Source: an uncultured Candidatus Saccharibacteria bacterium
Lineage (GTDB): Bacteria > Patescibacteriota > Minisyncoccia > Phycocordibacterales > Phycocordibacteraceae
Direction: 5' to 3'
Assembly: GCA_964652615.1 (NCBI GenBank)
Contig: CAZZAT010000001.1
Coordinates: 153,886-217,885, forward strand
DNA length: 64,000 nucleotides
Shown here in pieces: positions 19,095-50,146 of this stretch. The notes below the pieces were generated by a model. It was not told where the DNA came from. It worked only from the letters and a program-made list of their open reading frames with translations, and searched no databases. The first letter of the stretch is position 1, and every line of letters starts with the position of its first letter. The translations under genes and the position numbers were made by a program.

Positions 19095-19198
19095 AAATAG
19101 TGCGTTCGGAGGTTAACGGCTGTGAGAGGCGCGTGTCACCCGCGGATCGAACGTAGAGGGAATATAGCCTCTTTTATCGGAGGAAGCAAGGTTATGTG

Positions 19199-19270
19199 TG
19201 CCGGCGGGTGGAGTCGCGCCACCGTCTAGGGTTTATGAGTCCCTCGTTCTAACTCTTGAACTACGCCGGC
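19199..19270 (-). other. non-canonical tRNA-like element with CUCAUAA (CAU) anticodon loop; possible degenerate tRNA-Ile2/Met pseudogene
   Basis: Perfect 7-bp acceptor GCCGGCG/CGCCGGC and loop CTCATAA. But an A:A mismatch closes the anticodon stem, there is no G18G19 in the D-loop, and the T-loop CGCGACT lacks the U55C56 consensus. Confidence 0.3.
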
Positions 19271-19472
19271 AGGTTTCCTACGCGTGCCACTTGAGCTATA
19301 TCGGCCAAGATTCTATGGCGAAGATCTGCTCCTCTGGCTACCCGCAAGGTAAGGACACCATAATACAAATCGTGATTCTCGTAAACTTTCTTCCCCATTC
19401 TCCAGAAAGAAGGGTAGGTACGAATTATGCTGCTACCTCTTTTGCCGATTACAACATGCTAAAGTGTTATAA

Positions 19473-20165
19473 ATGCAGGAGGAAGCAACCACGCACGAGG
19501 ACCTTGTCCGAGAACTCATGGATCCCAAACTGCGCGCAGAATACGCTGCGCCCTACGACCGCTATCGCGCAGGATTCATCCCTTGTGCCCTTGCCGCAAC
19601 CCTCATCTTCCTCGGAGACCTCATGTATGGAAAGAAGCCTTCGTATGGAAAGTTCAAAGCCATAGAAGTAATCGCCCGCATTCCCTACCAGTCATGGGAA
19701 GCGGCCGCGTATACGCTCGTCTCTCTTTTCCATGGCGACGAAGCGCGTGCTGTGGAACTTTCAAAGACCGCGGCATTTAGCCGGTCCGCACAAGATAACG
19801 AGACCATGCACGTGGTCGTCATTTCGCATCTTGCAAAAAAAGCAAACAAAACTGCTTTTATGCGGCACCTACTCCTCCCTGCTCTTTTTGCATTCGTCTA
19901 TTTCTGGATACTCTATGCGCTGTATTTCGCATCGCGCCGCGCATCCTTTGAACTAAACTATCTCTTCGAGACCCATGCGTATCAGCAGTACAGCGCATTT
20001 CTTGAGCAGAACGAAGCGATGCTCCGCTCAAAGCCAGTCGTCTCCGATTTCCTCCAATTCTATGGCCGCGAAGTCCGGAGCGAATACGAATTCTTCGAGA
20101 GCGTGCGCAACGATGAGCTCATTCACCGTAACCGCTCCATCCACGAGATACGCGGAAGGCGATAA
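19473..20165 (+). CDS. alternative-oxidase-like di-iron carboxylate membrane protein (four E / ExxH motifs)
   Basis: WEAAAY, NETMH, FETHAY and NDELIHRNRSIHE mirror the AOX iron-ligand motifs LET, NERMHL, LEEEAxH and RADExxH. Confidence 0.5.
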   Translation: MQEEATTHEDLVRELMDPKLRAEYAAPYDRYRAGFIPCALAATLIFLGDLMYGKKPSYGKFKAIEVIARIPYQSWEAAAYTLVSLFHGDEARAVELSKTAAFSRSAQDNETMHVVVISHLAKKANKTAFMRHLLLPALFAFVYFWILYALYFASRRASFELNYLFETHAYQQYSAFLEQNEAMLRSKPVVSDFLQFYGREVRSEYEFFESVRNDELIHRNRSIHEIRGRR

Positions 20166-21086
20166 TTACTCTTCAAGAAGGATAAGTGCCTGTTCAGCTG
20201 CCTCATTCGCGCTGCGTGCTTCCTTTATAGCGGCTTCACGATTCCCTTCTAGACGGAAGGACTCGGCGTCTTCAGAAGAAGCACGTGACTCTTCAAGAAG
20301 CGCTTCTGCTTCTTCTGCAAACTCCGTCTCCGCTTCTGTAGTTTCCATGAGCTTAGACTCGGCCTTTTCGAGTACCTCCTTAGTATCAGCAGACAACTCA
20401 TCGAGTACGGGAGTCGTTGTTTCTTCCGTATCATCAACTATAGCTGCAGCTTGCTCTCCTATCTTCTCGGTCTCCGCTCCAAGGGAGGAAATTTGCTCGA
20501 GAAGGACTACTACTTCTGGAGACGCTGCTTCCTCTCCCCTGATTAGAATGCTTAGGACGCGTTCATATGCGCCAAGCGAATGTTGCAGTTCGGAACTTGC
20601 ATCAAGCACTTCCGAAAAGTTCCCTTTCTCGCCCGTTTCTACAAGATACGTCTGTATAGAGCGCGAATGGCGTTCGATTCCCTTTTGAAGGATTTGTATA
20701 TCTTTTGCGTCATATTCTGCGCGAGCGACAAGCTCCTTAGCGTCAGCCAAACGGCGCTTCACGAGTGCGTTATTGACACGTGCTTCAACACCGTCGAATC
20801 CGGATACGAGACTAAGCACAGCAGGCTCGAGCACATGCGTCTTTAGCGTGTAGAGAGGATCCCGAGGAGCAGAGTGCTCTGCAGCGAAGACAACTGGCCC
20901 ACCAACCAAAAGCACGAGTGCGAACGCATAGACTGCGCCAAAGCGATAGAAATACGGAGAAGCGACCGCGCGCGCAGAAGGAGTGCTGTCGAGGTACGCC
21001 AAAAACTCCTTCTTCAAAGAGGAGCGCTCGTCCTGTGAGAGTGACGGAGTGAGTGCTTTGCGTAGCGTTTCGAATTCTTTATTCAT
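20166..21086 (-). CDS. putative anti-sigma factor / membrane-anchored coiled-coil protein downstream of ECF sigma
   Basis: N-terminal cytoplasmic segment, single TM, then a long acidic coiled-coil region. 4-bp overlap with the sigma gene. Confidence 0.45.
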   Translation of the reverse strand: MNKEFETLRKALTPSLSQDERSSLKKEFLAYLDSTPSARAVASPYFYRFGAVYAFALVLLVGGPVVFAAEHSAPRDPLYTLKTHVLEPAVLSLVSGFDGVEARVNNALVKRRLADAKELVARAEYDAKDIQILQKGIERHSRSIQTYLVETGEKGNFSEVLDASSELQHSLGAYERVLSILIRGEEAASPEVVVLLEQISSLGAETEKIGEQAAAIVDDTEETTTPVLDELSADTKEVLEKAESKLMETTEAETEFAEEAEALLEESRASSEDAESFRLEGNREAAIKEARSANEAAEQALILLEE

Positions 21087-21601
21087 AGGGTTGGTTCGTA
21101 TAATGCTTTCAGTTTTTTCAGGGCTCGATGCAGCCGGACGCTTACGGCCGTTTCTGTCTTTCCAAGCGCCTCGGCTATCTCCTTTATCGCAAGCTGGTCG
21201 AGATAGCGCAGGCGCACGACTTCCTGAAGCGAAGCCGGGAGGGCGGCAACTCGCTCCATCAGGAGTTTCGCGTCCGCACGAACTTCGGGACTCGTCTCCT
21301 CCTGCGAGAAATCATGCCCCGCCTCAAGCATCTCATCAAGAGATGCGACGGGGCGCTTTGCCCGAAGTTCGTTCTTGAAGAGGTTCCCAGCGGTCGTATA
21401 GAGAAAGGACTTGAGAGACTGAATGGTTCCTCCTCTGCGCTCGTAGTCCCATGCCTTCATGAAAGCCTCTTGAGCCAGATCTTTTGCACGATCCCGGTCG
21501 CCGAGCCTATAGAAGAAATAGCGGAACAACGGCTCAAAAAGCTCGTCGTAGGCTTCCTCAAAGGCCTGCCTGCGGTCTCCTGTCTCCATCATATGAGACA
21601 C
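21083..21601 (-). CDS. RNA polymerase sigma-70 factor, ECF subfamily
   Basis: Region 2 (DLAQEAFMKAW) and region 4 (VVRLRYLDQLAIKEIAEALGKTETAVSVRLHRA) signatures. Confidence 0.85.
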   Translation of the reverse strand: MSHMMETGDRRQAFEEAYDELFEPLFRYFFYRLGDRDRAKDLAQEAFMKAWDYERRGGTIQSLKSFLYTTAGNLFKNELRAKRPVASLDEMLEAGHDFSQEETSPEVRADAKLLMERVAALPASLQEVVRLRYLDQLAIKEIAEALGKTETAVSVRLHRALKKLKALYEPTL

Positions 21602-21758
21602 CTTACCGCCTATTCTCTTACCTTCCTAGGGCGCTTTTTGATAAGTAAGGAAGCGCTCTATCCCGTGTCTCTATATACGAGCACTCGCGTAGCGGCCCGC
21701 TGGTGGCCGGCGCACGCTCATTATTTAGCAAACCATTACCATAACGGATACAATTATC

Positions 21759-23582
21759 ATGACTGCACACAAACACATGATTGCGAAGACCGCGGCGCTT
21801 GTCGCAGGCTTCGCACTCGTTGCTTCTTCGTTCGTCGCGTTCACGCCTTCTGCGCGCGCTGCGACGATCGATGAGCTTCAGGCGCAGATACAGGTACTTC
21901 TCGCACAGATCGCTTCCCTCAACGGAGGCGCATCTGCAGGAAGCTACACGTACACGCGCGATCTTACGCTCGGCGCCTCTGGTGCTGACGTTACCGCTCT
22001 CCAGAGCTGGCTTATTAGCAAGGGATACTCTATCCCAGCAGGTGCAACTGGCTACTTCGGTGCCCAGACGCAGTCTGCTCTTGCCGCCTACCAGGCAGCA
22101 AACGGTATCGCTCCAGCAGCAGGTTACTTTGGCCCGGTTACCCGCGCTAAGGTAAATGCTCAAGGCACCGTAACCATCCCAGACACCGGCGGTTCTACCT
22201 CGGGTCTTGGAAAGGGCGAAGCTTCTATCGAACGCCTTCGCGCTTCTAGCGGCGAAGAGGACGAAGTAGCTGAAGGCAGCGCTGCCGAAGTTGCTGAATT
22301 CGAGTTCCGCGTAAAGGATGGTGACATCCGCGTTGAGCGCCTCGATCTCACTTTCGAACCGGCTTCCGGAAACGATGAAGACGAGCCATGGAAGACCTTC
22401 GACACCATCACCATCCTTGATGCTAAGGGAAAGACTCTTGTTTCCAAGGACGTCTCTGATGAAGATGATTGGCTCGAAGACGATGAGCCATACGTATTCC
22501 GCTTCACCGGCCTTAACTATGTCGTGAAGAAGGGCGATACGGGAACGCTCGTTGTAGAGGCAGAGGTACAGAACTCGGTTGACGGCACGAACGACGGCGA
22601 GTCTTGGACGATCTACATCGACAGTAACGACCTCCGCGCTATCGACGGCGAAGGTATCGACCAGTACGCTGGCAACAGCAACCAGAGCGTTACGTTCGAT
22701 GTTGTTGCAGAGGGCGAGGGCGAGGAACTGAAGGTCCGCTCTTCAAGCGACAACCCAAGCTCCACGATTCTTAAAGTCGAGAACAACAAGCGTTCTTCTT
22801 GGTACACCATCTTCGCATTCGACATCGAAGCTGAAGATGCTGATATCGAAATCGAGACCGCAACCACCACAATTCAGGTTAGCTCGAACGACTTTGTTTC
22901 AGGCGTCGTGAACGACCTTGAGCTCGTCATCGATGGCAAGACTATCGACGACTGGTCATGGGTTTCCGGTGCTAACTCGGATACCGCAGTTATCGCGTTC
23001 GATGTTGACGGCGACGTCACTATCGACGAAGGTGACCGCGTTACTGCCGAGCTTCGTGCGCGCTTCAACGCCACGAGCACCAGCTCGACCATCAAGGCGA
23101 GCGTTGCATCAGGCGCAATTGAAGGCGAGGGCGCAGATGATGTGTTCAGCACAGGAGCAGCTTCCGGCAACACGCATACGCTTAGCCTCTCGACTGCTCG
23201 AATCTCGAACGTCAGCTGGACCAAGTCGGTTACTGGCGACAGCACCGATGGTACGCTCGACTTCTTCTTCACTGTTACGGCGGTAGATGAAGACTTCGAT
23301 CTCCTTGCTGCCGAGATTATCGACAGCAACACGATGTTCTTCGGAGCAACGACTACTCCGGTAACTCTCTCGCAAGATGGCTCCTTGAGCCGCGTATCAG
23401 GCGACAGCGTAACGGCGATTGGCACCACTGGCTTCACCATCTCTGAAGGTGATACCACCCGCTTCCGCGTCCGCTACGTACTCGCTGACGCTGGCACCTA
23501 CGAAGTCACTATCGAGTCGATTGCCGGCATCGAAATTGACGACGAAGATCAGCTCTCCCCAACAGTTATCCTTGCAAGCTAA
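21759..23582 (+). CDS. secreted acidic cell-surface protein with peptidoglycan-binding (PG_binding_1-like) domain and long repetitive beta-rich region
   Basis: Signal peptide. DLTLGASGADVTALQSWLISKGY...TQSALAAYQAANGI. D/E/T/S-rich remainder. Confidence 0.65.
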   Translation: MTAHKHMIAKTAALVAGFALVASSFVAFTPSARAATIDELQAQIQVLLAQIASLNGGASAGSYTYTRDLTLGASGADVTALQSWLISKGYSIPAGATGYFGAQTQSALAAYQAANGIAPAAGYFGPVTRAKVNAQGTVTIPDTGGSTSGLGKGEASIERLRASSGEEDEVAEGSAAEVAEFEFRVKDGDIRVERLDLTFEPASGNDEDEPWKTFDTITILDAKGKTLVSKDVSDEDDWLEDDEPYVFRFTGLNYVVKKGDTGTLVVEAEVQNSVDGTNDGESWTIYIDSNDLRAIDGEGIDQYAGNSNQSVTFDVVAEGEGEELKVRSSSDNPSSTILKVENNKRSSWYTIFAFDIEAEDADIEIETATTTIQVSSNDFVSGVVNDLELVIDGKTIDDWSWVSGANSDTAVIAFDVDGDVTIDEGDRVTAELRARFNATSTSSTIKASVASGAIEGEGADDVFSTGAASGNTHTLSLSTARISNVSWTKSVTGDSTDGTLDFFFTVTAVDEDFDLLAAEIIDSNTMFFGATTTPVTLSQDGSLSRVSGDSVTAIGTTGFTISEGDTTRFRVRYVLADAGTYEVTIESIAGIEIDDEDQLSPTVILAS

Positions 23583-23612
23583 CAGCTGAAAGGAATCCCA
23601 AAAGGAGAAAAG

Positions 23613-23645
23613 AAAAACCACCCCGTACGGGGTGGTTTTTCTTTT
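23613..23645 (+). terminator. rho-independent terminator (aaaaaccaccccgtacggggtggttttt)
   Basis: 10-bp stem plus T-run immediately after the 21759..23582 stop. Confidence 0.55.
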
Positions 23646-23647
23646 AC

Positions 23648-23673
23648 GTGTTGCGGGGGCCGGAATCGAACCG
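23648..23673. repeat. 26-bp direct repeat of the 3' end of the intron-containing tRNA(CAU) (identical to 25943..25968); attR-like island boundary
   Basis: gtgttgcgggggccggaatcgaaccg is identical at both sites. It covers trailer, discriminator, acceptor 3' strand and T-arm. Confidence 0.75.
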
Positions 23674-23700
23674 AATATTCTGCGGCCTATTCCCTATAGC

Positions 23701-24405
23701 CTAATATTGACGAAAGCTTCTCAAGTGCTGGTTCGCGAGAATTGCAAGCCTTGAGCCAGACGTATCATCAAGTTCGTGGCCAAGAGAAGGATATTCTATC
23801 CACGCACGTACGGCGGCGTTCTCCGCAGACGAGAAAATCTTCTGTTGAGACTCCAACGGAACGATGGTGTCACGACCGCCATGAAGAAACACGAACGAGC
23901 GCTTGAATGTCTTGATCGCGGACAAAAGAATATCCGTGTCGGGCAGGGTGTTTAGCAACGGCTTCGTCGTCTCAGGATTTCGCCCGCAACCGCTTCCTGC
24001 GAACACTACCGTATCCATGGCACAAAGCACGGACGGAAGACCGAGGAGGGTCGTCCCTCCGAACGAAAGCGCGATGCTGTGCAGACGCGTGCTTTCGGGA
24101 AGTAAACGCTTCCTTGCGTAATCGAAGGCTCGAGCGACATCTTCGCACTCCTGCTCGAATGTCTTTCCCTCGAACTGCTCTTTCTTATTTTCGGCATCCA
24201 AACGACCCGTGTGTATACAAATGACATGGTGATCGTGCCGCAGAAGTTCGACAAGTTCATTGTCCCAGGAGTCTCCTGACGGAATATGCCCCCCGTACAA
24301 CCCCTTCAAAACAAGCACCGCATCAGCTTCTTCTTGTGCAGCGGGATAGTGGTAGACGCTTGTTTTGGTTCCTTTGAAAGGAGACTCCAGGGTATGCTCG
24401 CTCAT
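23701..24405 (-). CDS. alpha/beta-hydrolase fold protein (dienelactone-hydrolase-like)
   Basis: ALSFGG nucleophile-elbow-like motif, HGGRD, C-terminal GHELDD. Confidence 0.65.
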   Translation of the reverse strand: MSEHTLESPFKGTKTSVYHYPAAQEEADAVLVLKGLYGGHIPSGDSWDNELVELLRHDHHVICIHTGRLDAENKKEQFEGKTFEQECEDVARAFDYARKRLLPESTRLHSIALSFGGTTLLGLPSVLCAMDTVVFAGSGCGRNPETTKPLLNTLPDTDILLSAIKTFKRSFVFLHGGRDTIVPLESQQKIFSSAENAAVRAWIEYPSLGHELDDTSGSRLAILANQHLRSFRQY

Positions 24406-24455
24406 AAAAGAATAGTACCCTCATCGCTTGCAGAAGCAATGAGGGTATCAGGCAA

Positions 24456-25364
24456 TCAGCGGAACTCCGGCGGAATCTCCGTATCGACGAAGCTAATGTC
24501 GTTCCCAACCTGATCTCGCGCCGCGACTGCGAAGCGATACGTCGTCGGAGGAAACTTCGCCACTGTCCACCCCGGCAGACCGTGGTGATACTCCCTGAAG
24601 GCGTTCGCCACTTTTGTGTATTCGAACGGGAAATAGAGACAGAAGCTCCTCGTCAGGCGAAGGAGCAGGTACCGCCCTATCATGCCATCGAAGACGTGGC
24701 TGTATTGGGATTCTACAGTGGTACCAGGCTCAGCGCCCGCAATGTGCTTCGAGAAAAGCGGAAGACTGAGTCCCTTCCTTATCTCTGAGTCGCTATAGGT
24801 TCCTTGAAAATCCCGGTGCACAACGCGTCGAATCTCAAGGTTTCCGTCAATTTCCGCGAGCGTATTCTGCCCATGAAGCTCGGGAAGCAGACCCCGCTTC
24901 GAAACGAGTGCGACCCAGGAATCCAAGAGCGGTCCTGCGACGCGTTCAACGAAATACTCCATCGGCAACCGCCCTCCGTGCATCCTGACGATTTGCACGG
25001 CCAACGGCTCGTCCTCGGACGCATGAGGGTCGTGCGCGTACAACGAATGGTACGGCATGAGTACATGGCCGCCCGCGTGATGCGGATAGGGAACGACTTC
25101 TCGATAGACGATTCCAGAACCTTCGTAGTCGCCGCCTTGAATGACGACTCCTAGCGATTCGGGAAGGAACGCATACCGGTCCGGATGCAGATTTGCATCG
25201 CAAAATGCCCGCAGATCGGAACAGATGGCGATGCTATGCTCGATCGAACTTCTTTGAAGCCTTCGAACGAAGCGGAAATGCTTCTTGTCGAGATCGGTCT
25301 TGATATAAACCCGGAACGCATCTTCTGTCAGAAGCGTCCGGGTCGAGCTCGTCGGCTGCGCCAA
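24456..25364 (-). CDS. IucA/IucC-family (siderophore synthetase C-terminal / FhuF-like) protein; TTG start; possibly the 3' part of a gene split by an in-frame stop
   Basis: ELHGQNTLAEIDGNLEIRRVVHRDFQG resembles the IucA/IucC C-terminal core. At 302 aa it is about half the size of a full NIS synthetase. Confidence 0.4.
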   Translation of the reverse strand: MAQPTSSTRTLLTEDAFRVYIKTDLDKKHFRFVRRLQRSSIEHSIAICSDLRAFCDANLHPDRYAFLPESLGVVIQGGDYEGSGIVYREVVPYPHHAGGHVLMPYHSLYAHDPHASEDEPLAVQIVRMHGGRLPMEYFVERVAGPLLDSWVALVSKRGLLPELHGQNTLAEIDGNLEIRRVVHRDFQGTYSDSEIRKGLSLPLFSKHIAGAEPGTTVESQYSHVFDGMIGRYLLLRLTRSFCLYFPFEYTKVANAFREYHHGLPGWTVAKFPPTTYRFAVAARDQVGNDISFVDTEIPPEFR

Positions 25365-25367
25365 GAC

Positions 25368-25694
25368 TTATCCATGGACGATAAGTCCTCGCCGGTCGAC
25401 GTCAGGATGCCAGAAGAACCGGCGCTTCCCTGCTTCTATCGACCAGTTCTCAAGAGCATCCGACGGTGCTGATCTATGGACCGTACACTCGCTATCGGAA
25501 AGTAACGTATACGGAAGCACCACATGGGCGATTTTCCCTTGCGGGTCGAAGACGGGATTCACTTCCGAATAGTCAGTAAAGCTGCCCTTCGTGTCGTTAA
25601 GATGCCGTTCGCCGTAGACGGTCGAAACCAACGGATCGTTCACCAACAATTGTGCAAGTTTCATTCCAACCTCCTCTGTTGGGGTCCGGTGCAA
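25368..25694 (-). CDS. hypothetical protein, in frame with and separated by a single TAA from the downstream IucA/IucC-like ORF
   Basis: Same reading frame as 24456..25364 with a one-codon gap after the TAA stop. Looks like a nonsense-split pseudogene. Confidence 0.35.
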   Translation of the reverse strand: MHRTPTEEVGMKLAQLLVNDPLVSTVYGERHLNDTKGSFTDYSEVNPVFDPQGKIAHVVLPYTLLSDSECTVHRSAPSDALENWSIEAGKRRFFWHPDVDRRGLIVHG

Positions 25695-25945
25695 TAATCA
25701 CACAAACTTTCTTTTATGTCTACTCCATTCCAGAGAGCAAATACCAACAGCAAGAAAACAACCAAGAGGGCAATCGGAAAAGAACCGCGATTTTCGATGA
25801 TTTGGTCGGTGAGCACCCCGGCCAGAATACATAGCTAGAAAGTCCAACTTGCGTTGGACTTTCTAGCTTTTTAGAGACGAACAGGTCTGGCGGACTGGAA
25901 CCAAAATTAGGCGCTTTAAGCCAGCCAGCTGGTCTCTGAACCGTG

Positions 25946-26261
25946 TTGCGGGGGCCGGAATCGAACCGGCGTCTGGAGGTTCTTTTACACCTTTTGTTTC
26001 CAAAAGGAATGGACTATCCCATGATCCCTGTAGGATCCTCCCATTATAGTCTCTGAACCTTACTCAATATGCATTGAGTCTTGGCTGCTGATTGCCGAAT
26101 CTTCCTGTTTTTTTGCATTCGCGCCCATCCTTTCAGATCACGCTGTAGCACAGAAAGCTCTAACGGTATTCCAGCAATTTAGAGAGTTTTTCCACTACCC
26201 GTTACCGGATAGGGTCACGTATTCACATGAGCCTCCCGAGGTACCTCTCCTCTACCCCGCT
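25946..26261 (-). tRNA. initiator-like tRNA-Met(CAU) interrupted by a group I intron after anticodon position 36 (exon1 26261..26227, exon2 25981..25946)
   Basis: Exon 1 is AGCGGGG-TA-GAGG-AGAGGTA-CCTC-G-GGAGG-CTCAT. Exon 2 is AA-CCTCC-AGAC-GCCGG-TTCGATT-CCGGC-CCCCGCA-A. Spliced, this is a canonical 71-nt tRNA with loop CUCAUAA, A11:U24, a 1:72 mismatch and GG in the D-loop. Confidence 0.7.
25982..26226 (-). ncRNA. group I intron (245 nt) in tRNA anticodon loop; P, Q, R, S elements present; no ORF
   Basis: Intron starts GUG (guide sequence complementary to the exon CAU) and ends in G. P-like AAATTGCTGGAA (26169-26180 rc), Q-like AATCAGCAGC (26084-26093 rc), R-like GTTCAGAGACTA (26047-26058 rc), S-like GGGATAGTCC (26011-26020 rc). 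Same insertion site as the Azoarcus tRNA-Ile intron. Confidence 0.75.
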
Positions 26262-26382
26262 ATAGTTTCGCTTCTCGTATGAAGCGTTTTCAGAGGATAC
26301 CACTGGGGAAGATACTTTTCAAGATTTAACCATTAGTATGGGATTCATATATCTGGATAAATTATGATGCTATAATTTAAGC

Positions 26383-26772
26383 ATGCCTCTGAAAGATCAA
26401 AACAAAAGAAAGCTATATCACGCGAAATACATGAAGGAAGTGTGGTATCCGAAAAATAAAAAGAAACATATCGGATATGTAAAGAGGAATAAGCTTCGAG
26501 TTGCAGAATTTATTGATGAATACAAACGAAAGCGAGCATGTATGGATTGTGGGTTCTCTGGAGAAAAATTCCCTTTTGTTTTGGATTTTGATCATATTAA
26601 AGGTAAACCCTCAAAGAGGTTCAGTATTGGAAGTTGGTCACGGTCAGTATTGAGCATTCAAGCAATTGAACAAGAAATCAGAAAGTGTGAGATAGTATGC
26701 GCAAACTGCCATCGCGTACGCACCTTTTCAAAATCCAAAAGGAGGACTACTAAATCTCCCCGAATTCCTTAA
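26383..26772 (+). CDS. HNH endonuclease (free-standing, AT-rich)
   Basis: CMDCG...LDFDHIKGK...VCANCHRVRT, a classic HNH/zinc-finger core. The gene is markedly AT-rich and divergent from the intron-containing tRNA 120 bp away. Confidence 0.8.
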   Translation: MPLKDQNKRKLYHAKYMKEVWYPKNKKKHIGYVKRNKLRVAEFIDEYKRKRACMDCGFSGEKFPFVLDFDHIKGKPSKRFSIGSWSRSVLSIQAIEQEIRKCEIVCANCHRVRTFSKSKRRTTKSPRIP

Positions 26773-27361
26773 AGACTCTTTCGTATTTCTGAATCGTACG
26801 GTACGCAATGTTGTCATCAAGTTTGAAATCAGAGCCGCGGTGCGCTATGTCATTTCGCACTTTGTGCGCTTCCCATGCTTCTTCTAAGGAAGCGAACTTT
26901 GCACCCTTCAATCGGTCCCCCACTGAAGCGCCTTCGTATCCTGCCTGTCGCAACACTTCTTCAAGCATAATGTCTGCTTCAATAATCGCTTGACGCCAAT
27001 CGCTTTCTTGGGCGCTTTCAATAAGCTGCCGTATATGAGCCCAGCGTGAATGATCTTTCGTCTTTTCAGCAACATCAGGAGCAAGCGTTGAGTACTTTTC
27101 CTTGTCCTCTGCTCCCTTAATTTGCCCTATGCGCATGGTTGCATAAGTGATGAGGCCGAGCGCAATGAGAACGAACAAGAAAGAAATAATGCCGAGGATA
27201 CCCCACGCATGAGAGAACCAGCCCATAAAAGCTTCAAAGAGAGACATCGCAGGCAAGGAAGGTGTCGTGCCTGTTGAAACGGAAAACTGCCCGCCGTAGA
27301 TGAGACGGAAGAAATATTCGAGATTCAAGTATCGTATTGGTCCACCGTCTGCGCCTTCCAT
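26750..27361 (-). CDS. hypothetical membrane protein
   Basis: One or two TM segments. The C-terminal half is predicted soluble. No motif recognised. Convergent 23-nt overlap with the HNH gene. Confidence 0.45.
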   Translation of the reverse strand: MEGADGGPIRYLNLEYFFRLIYGGQFSVSTGTTPSLPAMSLFEAFMGWFSHAWGILGIISFLFVLIALGLITYATMRIGQIKGAEDKEKYSTLAPDVAEKTKDHSRWAHIRQLIESAQESDWRQAIIEADIMLEEVLRQAGYEGASVGDRLKGAKFASLEEAWEAHKVRNDIAHRGSDFKLDDNIAYRTIQKYERVFKEFGEI

Positions 27362-50059: not shown

Positions 50060-50073
50060 AAAAGAATCTGTTG

Positions 50074-50146
50074 TGCACCCGGCAGGCCTCGATCCTGCGA
50101 CCGCCTAGGTATAAGCTAGGTGCTCTACCAACTGAGCTACGGGTGC
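50074..50146 (-). tRNA. tRNA-Ile(UAU)
   Basis: GCACCCG acceptor, GCTC-AGTTGGTA-GAGC D-arm, anticodon stem CCTAG/CTAGG with loop CTTATAC (UAU), T-arm GCAGG-ATCGAGG-CCTGC. 73 nt. Confidence 0.8.

Follow-up and report, generated by a model that had tools for sequence, protein, structure and literature searches.

Mobile introns have been proposed to originate by collaborative homing, the convergence on one site of a free-standing endonuclease with an intron that lacks an open reading frame (ORF); according to a 2014 review, the idea rests on two phage systems, and there is little evidence for bacterial introns moving between bacteria (PMC3984707). F-CphI is a free-standing enzyme encoded beside the ORF-less psbA group I intron of cyanophage S-PM2 (PMC3984707, PMC6083498), and in phage T4 the free-standing HNH endonuclease MobE drives trans homing of the nrdB intron with its defunct I-TevIII (PMC2790892). 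T4 SegB is a homing endonuclease located inside a tRNA gene cluster (PMC2330249), and HNH genes have been recorded in mycobacterial and phage tRNA arrays, for which no biochemical characterisation was reported (PMC5966550, PMC6409571). As cited in the 2014 review, the cyanobacterial tRNA-fMet intron encodes its own endonuclease, which has a PD-(D/E)XK fold and is aimed at the anticodon region (PMC3984707). tRNA introns in candidate-phyla genomes are mentioned in passing only (PMC8172020). Literature searches brought up general remarks about tRNA introns of candidate-phyla bacteria and about HNH genes within tRNA arrays, but no account of an HNH gene paired with a tRNA-fMet intron.

Here we describe such a pairing in a stretch of 64,000 nucleotides of a Patescibacteria genome (contig CAZZAT010000001.1), hereafter the window, in which an HNH nuclease gene lies 156 bp from a group I intron, termed class A, that splits the initiator tRNA gene. 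[quoted passage not shown] Unlike F-CphI, which belongs to a phage and to a protein gene, the present case concerns a Patescibacteria chromosome and an initiator tRNA. The likeness to MobE is one of analogy, a free-standing HNH enzyme mobilising itself and a neighbouring intron that is unable to move alone, but the T4 intron holds a decayed endonuclease ORF and the intron in the window holds none. Like SegB and the array-associated HNH genes, the gene would be a selfish nuclease gene among tRNA genes, whereas SegB is a GIY-YIG enzyme and neither SegB nor the arrays involve an intron. With the cyanobacterial intron our case shares the initiator tRNA as host, the insertion in the anticodon loop and an endonuclease aimed at the anticodon region, here a candidate; the cyanobacterial intron contains its PD-(D/E)XK endonuclease, whereas the window's intron is ORF-less and the candidate HNH enzyme is encoded outside. 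From these described cases the locus is set apart by four features: a chromosomal position, occurrence in Patescibacteria, the initiator tRNA as host gene and an ORF-less intron.

Results

Interrupted tRNA gene and its intron

The features of the locus are collected in Table 1. Because of its A1xA72 mismatch (C1xA72 in relatives) and its A11:U24 pair, the interrupted tRNA(CAU) is to all appearances of the initiator type (tRNA-fMet). Hallmarks of bacterial initiators are a 1:72 mismatch, a purine11:pyrimidine24 pair and three G-C pairs at the base of the anticodon stem; in the present tRNA the stem has G30-C40 and G31-C39, but A29-U41. A separate elongator-type tRNA(CAU) lies at 19198-19270. 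The 3' exon is identical to intron-less alleles in many relatives.

Table 1 Features at the tRNA-fMet locus of the window and at related loci (positions are those of the window unless a locus number is given)
Feature	Position	Strand	Basis or remark
Initiator-type tRNA(CAU) gene with intron	25945..26261	-	ARAGORN with introns allowed; 72 nt after in-silico splicing
5' exon, tRNA positions 1-36, 3' end is the anticodon CAU	26227..26261	-	ARAGORN
Group I intron (class A), 245 nt, between tRNA positions 36 and 37	25982..26226	-	Rfam RF00028, ARAGORN
3' exon, tRNA positions 37-72 plus discriminator region	25945..25981	-	ARAGORN
Divergent spacer, tRNA 5' end to HNH ATG	26262..26382		121 bp, 33.9% GC
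Promoter-like site of tRNA precursor (TTGAAA, 17 nt, TG-n-TATCCT)	26294..26322	-	Consensus match only
Extended -10-like TGATGCTATAAT (TGnTATAAT)	26365..26376	+	Ends 6 nt before HNH ATG
HNH nuclease gene	26383..26772	+	ATG start, 129 aa; ORF list, PHROG, conserved residues
CxxC…DH…CxxCH core	C-terminal part of HNH protein	+	Sequence, AlphaFold2 model
Gene D, 203 aa, membrane anchor and HEPN-like RNxIAH motif	26750..27361	-	ORF list, synteny
Longer intron copies	L007 1640-2051; L176 1003-1408; L136; L167		Peripheral-loop insertions
tRNA-Asp GTC with insertion	L029 7228-7556; L032 6570-6857; L038 7204-7491		ARAGORN
tRNA-Thr GGT with insertion	L033 8305-8573		ARAGORN
tRNA-Arg GCG with insertion	L036 3358-3637		ARAGORN
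HNH ORFs stopping inside downstream tRNA	L030, L035, L040, L043, L047, L067, L071, L075, L078, others		
~55-nt AGCGGGGTAGAGGAGAG element	L124 4114-4248 (two copies); also L116, L130, L132, L138, L142, L143, L012		Absent from window

The Rfam model Intron_gpI (RF00028, gathering score 50) matched positions 25990-26237 (-) over its full length (1-253) with 64.7 bits, and intron homologues in two other loci (L023 and L133) scored ~69 bits against the same model. In the consensus fold of class A, drawn from 10 homologues, 40 of the 94 pairs are preserved even though both partners have changed, and P1 invariably has its U·G pair at the 5' splice site (U36; columns 35:47). The last nucleotide of the intron is G. 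The ORF list holds no endonuclease-sized ORF in the window's intron, which is too short for an endonuclease gene, and the sole listed ORF reaching into it (25863-26003, -) lies mostly over the 3' exon and the flank. Judged by its sequence, the findings suggest an intron that is ORF-less and by structure competent for splicing.

Some introns of class A and of a further class B, inserted between tRNA positions 33 and 34, are 60-95 nt longer owing to insertions in peripheral loops and measure 334-340 nt (class A) and 291-295 nt (class B). These longer copies are all free of ORFs, so none is a composite intron harbouring an endonuclease gene.

HNH gene and its product

A first-pass annotation of the window had described an AT-rich HNH gene with a zinc-finger core that diverges from an intron-containing tRNA about 120 bp away, the intron itself having no ORF, and all of these points held. 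The ORF was confirmed, and in profile searches its product matched two HNH endonuclease families, PHROG 2255 (E=1e-23) and PHROG 3106 (E=4.5e-22). The motif residues C53xxC56, D70-H71 and C106-A-N-C109-H110 do not vary among 25 aligned homologues with 49-74% identity. The GC content of the ORF is 37.4% vs 51% for gatA and for the whole window, and the bias is kept in 38 homologous loci, where HNH genes lie on average 12 GC points below the adjoining gatA. ARAGORN and Rfam place the divergent tRNA at a distance of 121 bp (26261 to 26383), and the 245-nt intron lacks a listed ORF of endonuclease size. The region between the two genes, given by the same annotation as 26062-26382, had to be redrawn: the spacer proper at 26262-26382 is AT-rich as described, but the remainder belongs to the intron (26062-26226) and the 5' exon (26227-26261). 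For the comparison with I-HmuI or MobE-like enzymes that it proposed, no match in sequence or fold was obtained, and the likeness to them is one of analogy only.

HNH superfamily proteins are marked by a catalytic His after an Asp (DH), a second metal-binding His or Asn and usually two CxxC pairs of zinc ligands. The CxxC…DH…CxxCH layout of the 129-aa product fits, and the protein is a predicted member of this HNH, or beta-beta-alpha-metal, nuclease superfamily. Searches with it gave nothing significant in Pfam and NCBIfam and nothing matching among PDB sequences. In the AlphaFold2 model (pLDDT 81), the N-terminal third is predicted to be a 44-residue basic helix, which is followed by a small strand-strand-helix core. 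Foldseek comparison of the model with the PDB returned weak HNH-type matches, none of them a significant match to a characterised homing endonuclease; the best, likewise non-significant, were the HNH domains of CBASS Cap5 (E=0.7) and T4 endonuclease VII (E=3.2, TM 0.34).

Purifying selection acts on intact copies of the gene, in which the median pN was 0.16 and the median pS 0.89. The HNH protein is conserved more strongly than GatA.

The spacer corresponding to that between the tRNA and the HNH gene measures 107-182 bp in relatives. When 12 spacers were aligned, columns T111-A118 and T122 of the extended -10-like element upstream of HNH were invariant and its distance to the ATG was fixed; the consensus promoter scan did not call this element, which has no -35 match. 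Since it ends so close to the start codon, the HNH gene probably has its own promoter and an mRNA that is leaderless or nearly so. The -10 region of the candidate tRNA promoter is also kept in relatives in the spacer alignment.

Layout of the locus

The synteny gatC-gatA-D was found at >100 loci, and the order gatC-gatA-D-[HNH, tRNA-fMet] is kept in L001-L043. In the arrangement of the window (arrangement 1), HNH lies between D and tRNA-fMet, a position that we call the slot, and is antisense to both; the final 23 bp of its ORF overlap the 3' end of gene D on the opposite strand. In arrangement 2, D, tRNA-fMet, HNH, a second tRNA(CAU) and tRNA-Asp follow each other on a single strand, and the HNH ORF ends inside the second tRNA or a few bases before it.

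Gene D, which in L001-L160 always comes directly after gatC-gatA, has an N-terminal membrane segment and an invariant AWEAHxVRNxIAHEG motif (Rx4H, HEPN-like). Its match to Pfam HEPN_RiboL-PSP is weak (E=0.0047) and below the family cut-off. The product looks like a conserved membrane-anchored HEPN-like protein of Paceibacteria.

HNH gene and intron in relatives

Two samples were drawn, namely a scan for HNH with one genome per species (80 loci) and a D-anchored sample in which the locus was taken from metagenomes by gene D, independent of HNH (80 loci). Patescibacteria hold 321 close HNH homologues, and those 50-75% identical all come from Patescibacteria/Paceibacteria. Within the Paceibacteria clade of the window, an HNH gene in the slot was accompanied by the class A intron at 27 of 28 loci, the exception being the intron-less tRNA of L022; this 27-to-1 count combines the D-anchored and species-genome loci with four further look-ups. 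In the D-anchored sample, a slot ORF occurred with an intron at 6 loci and without one at 0, and loci lacking a slot ORF had an intron in 8 cases and none in 43 (Fisher p=8e-5, computed ignoring phylogeny). Neither of the two slot ORFs, HNH and the second one described below, was present within the fetched sequence at 67 of the 80 D-anchored loci.

Most D-anchored loci consist of D followed by an intron-less tRNA-fMet with no ORF, and their exons are often identical to the window's spliced tRNA. Many such empty sites mean that targets exist. In them the distance from the D stop to the tRNA ranges from 8 to 371 bp and the intervening sequence is not conserved, which leaves the tRNA gene as the sole conserved candidate target close by. 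On a neighbour-joining tree of gatA, loci bearing the cassette, loci with the intron only and empty loci were interspersed (for example L016/L088, L004/L081, L012/L087 and L015/L110).

The closest filled and empty loci, L011 and L124, are ~99% identical through gatA and D (98.8% over D) and cannot be aligned past the D stop codon, where L011 has HNH and an intron-containing tRNA and L124 has a 169-bp spacer and then a tRNA of identical exons that lacks the intron. Because homology breaks at this point, the D stop codon appears to be the boundary of the cassette on that side. In a second comparison, the introns of L098 (HNH and intron) and L137 (intron only; D and tRNA 34 bp apart) are nearly identical, and their D 3' ends resemble each other. 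L098/L113, the next closest pair of a filled and an empty locus, gave no information, since in L113 unrelated genes follow D and a tRNA is missing. When L018 is compared with L098, 60-bp windows across tRNA, intron, spacer and HNH show ~73-98% identity, mostly >=85%, against mostly 57-87% for D and gatA, and no homology is found beyond the tRNA 3' end. In several pairs of loci, pS was 0.32-0.41 for HNH vs 0.62-0.66 for gatA, roughly half as much.

HNH pseudogenes were found beside intact introns in L042 (N-terminal truncation) and L048 (frameshifts), and class A introns without HNH in L133, L137 and L159.

The first-pass annotation had suggested that HNH and intron form an active or recently active homing unit and had expected intron-less relatives to lack HNH. 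The co-occurrence at 27 of 28 loci, the L011/L124 pair and the pseudogenes speak for such a unit; against it stand the introns without HNH and 13 gatC-gatA-D loci at which HNH lies beside an intron-less tRNA-fMet (L021, L022, L024, L027-L032, L034, L036, L037, L040), and the expectation of HNH-free relatives failed on these same loci. On balance the suggestion is supported in part. Only L022 among the 13 has the window's arrangement; in the others HNH lies just upstream of the second tRNA(CAU). In arrangement 2, HNH is found with the class A intron, with the class B intron (L026, L033, L038) or with no intron, and since both classes accompany it there, it shows no strict specificity for one insertion site. 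A strict reading in which HNH needs the intron is ruled out by L022 and arrangement 2. All HNH-bearing genomes with an intron-less tRNA-fMet differ from the window in the anticodon stem, which fits immunity of the target site or, equally, phylogeny.

Distance matrices of HNH, intron, D and gatA are mutually correlated (Mantel r 0.55-0.69), and these correlations did not separate co-transfer from vertical descent. Correlation of all four suggests that a good part of the history is vertical and that repeated loss could yield part of the patchiness.

A second ORF in the slot

In some relatives the slot is occupied by an unrelated protein of 233 aa in the same orientation as HNH, which has an N-terminal helix-turn-helix (HTH) and a conserved LGLGLYWGEGYK motif. 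At all eight loci with a visible tRNA, it adjoins only the class B intron, whose insertion site in the anticodon loop of tRNA-fMet is 3 nt from that of class A. That two unrelated ORFs are each paired with their own intron in one slot argues for a pairing beyond chance proximity.

The 233-aa HTH protein is a candidate nuclease. It was considered as a LAGLIDADG enzyme on account of LGLGLYWGEGYK and the order of its secondary structures; Pfam, PHROGs, PDB profiles and Foldseek (PDB, BFVD) recognise the N-terminal HTH only and did not confirm this assignment.

The wider HNH family

A profile search with the HNH family retrieved 31,924 cluster representatives at E≤0.001 and 10,285 at E≤1e-10. Distant homologues occur in Acidobacteriota, Gammaproteobacteria, Actinomycetota, Saccharimonadia, one archaeon and phages. 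Outside Paceibacteria, the HNH gene lies <=100 bp from an intron-less tRNA gene at 27 of 37 loci, the tRNAs being of many isotypes, and tRNA clusters of Mycobacterium phage Phabba, Streptomyces phages and cyanophages also harbour homologues. Because distant and phage homologues adjoin intron-less tRNA genes, the family is tied to tRNA genes as such and not to introns. Its habit of abutting tRNA genes agrees with enzymes that would recognise tRNA gene sequence.

The HNH ORF runs into the downstream tRNA and stops there at 17 loci, 10 of which use U8-A9-G10 (TAG) of that tRNA as the stop codon. As a speculation, RNase P processing would strip the stop codon from such HNH mRNAs, possibly as a built-in limit on expression.

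Among the family representatives (P0242-P0389) are many of 200-450 aa in which two or three stretches are matched, so that either the module is repeated in tandem within a single predicted protein or gene calls were fused.

Discussion

We put at roughly 55% the probability that the HNH gene and the class A intron form a mobile cassette that spreads in a manner like collaborative homing and stems from a family of free-standing homing endonucleases colonising the edges of tRNA genes. The cassette would comprise HNH, the divergent promoters, the 5' exon and the intron. The HNH enzyme would nick or cut tRNA-fMet alleles free of both HNH and intron, in or near the region coding for the anticodon loop, and recombinational repair off a cassette-bearing copy would co-convert the intron and the HNH gene, with gene D and the 37-bp 3' exon serving as the two homology arms. 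Since the intron would split the HNH target, the carrier would be protected, and after fixation HNH may decay or be deleted, leaving solitary introns. We infer the cleavage target, the immunity provided by the intron and the direction of events.

Patchiness, a near-isogenic filled/empty pair, pseudogenes and purifying selection are the marks expected of a homing cycle that would run through invasion, fixation, decay and loss. The presence of HNH is polymorphic at a fixed site among close relatives (L011/L124, L098/L137, the gatA tree), degenerate copies (L042, L048) exist beside intact ones under purifying selection, and the slot occurs in nature as empty, intron-only, decayed and full.

The main rival to the cassette takes HNH for a selfish homing endonuclease associated with tRNA genes whose target and spread are independent of an older resident intron. 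At ~150 bp apart the two would be co-inherited in any recombination event, whatever the enzyme cuts, and proximity might account for their joint distribution. Such an enzyme would be at home beside the intron-less tRNA genes that the family abuts at 27 of 37 loci outside Paceibacteria and in phage tRNA clusters, and it would explain the 13 Paceibacteria loci with HNH next to an intron-less tRNA-fMet, the introns that exist without HNH and the company of both intron classes in arrangement 2. It does not readily account for the asymmetry that a slot ORF almost never occurs without an intron (1 of 28 loci for HNH, 0 of 8 for the second ORF) whereas an intron without an ORF is common, nor for the fact that two unrelated ORFs sharing one slot keep to different intron classes. 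The asymmetry could, however, arise if precise loss of the intron were much rarer than deletion of the ORF. Weighing these points, we regard independence of the two elements as unlikely, at about one chance in a few.

A domesticated HNH gene, serving the host in DNA repair, in maintenance of tRNA genes or in assisting the intron and inherited vertically like an ordinary gene, would be expected to be under strong purifying selection and more conserved than GatA, to keep its own putative promoter and to stay syntenic across lineages, as HNH does where gatA is merely 48-70% identical; its distances also correlate with those of host genes. We consider this improbable, because a slot ORF is missing at 67 of the 80 D-anchored loci, including the near-isogenic L124, because HNH pseudogenes occur and the AT bias persists relative to the host, and because homologues are scattered over phages and unrelated phyla. 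A part in a restriction, Cas-associated or other anti-phage defence system is hinted at by the non-significant Foldseek match to the CBASS Cap5 HNH domain (E=0.7) among the best ones. We rejected it as very improbable on the null result of PADLOC, in which no model matched, and on gene context: HNH has no partner gene, its neighbours are gatCA, D and tRNA genes, and the same context recurs in >40 loci with no methylase, Cas or cyclase genes.

If the cassette reading is true, collaborative homing would take place on a bacterial chromosome and in an essential single gene, the initiator tRNA, with every stage of the homing cycle on view in metagenomes and a second, independent cassette to compare it with. 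The locus would also provide a first functional handle on a very large family of HNH proteins, found in bacteria and phages, that shadow tRNA genes and for whose member in the window no curated model gave a match. If the enzyme cuts elsewhere, the gene would be an ordinary free-standing HNH gene beside a tRNA. More tentatively, with a confidence short of even, we suggest that the tRNA-fMet locus of Paceibacteria may be an arena of collaborative homing in which HNH with the 36-37 intron and the 233-aa HTH protein (with its LAGLIDADG-like motif) with the 33-34 intron compete for the slot, and that the HNH family of >10,000 clusters targets the 5' edges of tRNA genes and often borrows U8-A9-G10 of the tRNA as its stop codon.

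Additional observations

Several observations concern the surroundings of the locus. The 3' end of tRNA-fMet is a synteny breakpoint at the strain level, L172 and L173 being 99.9% identical to 12 bp past the tRNA and unrelated thereafter, and large serine recombinase genes lie near the tRNA-fMet locus in L172 and L166. The window genes at 23701-25694, one with a weak IucA/IucC match, are without counterpart in L001-L043. The region 19300-25900 of the window, beyond the tRNA-fMet 3' end, may be an integration hot spot or island.

Other tRNA genes were also noted. In relatives, ARAGORN reported tRNA genes with 195-254-nt insertions in the anticodon loop (Table 1); those in L029 and L032 were not called group I by Rfam at the gathering threshold. 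A tRNA-Ile with anticodon TAT lies at 50073-50146 (-), and this UAU tRNA may read AUA in the window's genome. In relatives, a third tRNA(CAU) of 75 nt, which is tRNA-Ile2-like, adjoins HNH.

Upstream of tRNA-fMet in some relatives we observed an element of ~55 nt that repeats the first 17 nt of the tRNA (AGCGGGGTAGAGGAGAG) and continues with a hairpin and then GCGGGAG…GCGAAG. The hairpin stem varies with compensating changes, and the element may be a repair scar at the tRNA or a small structured RNA.
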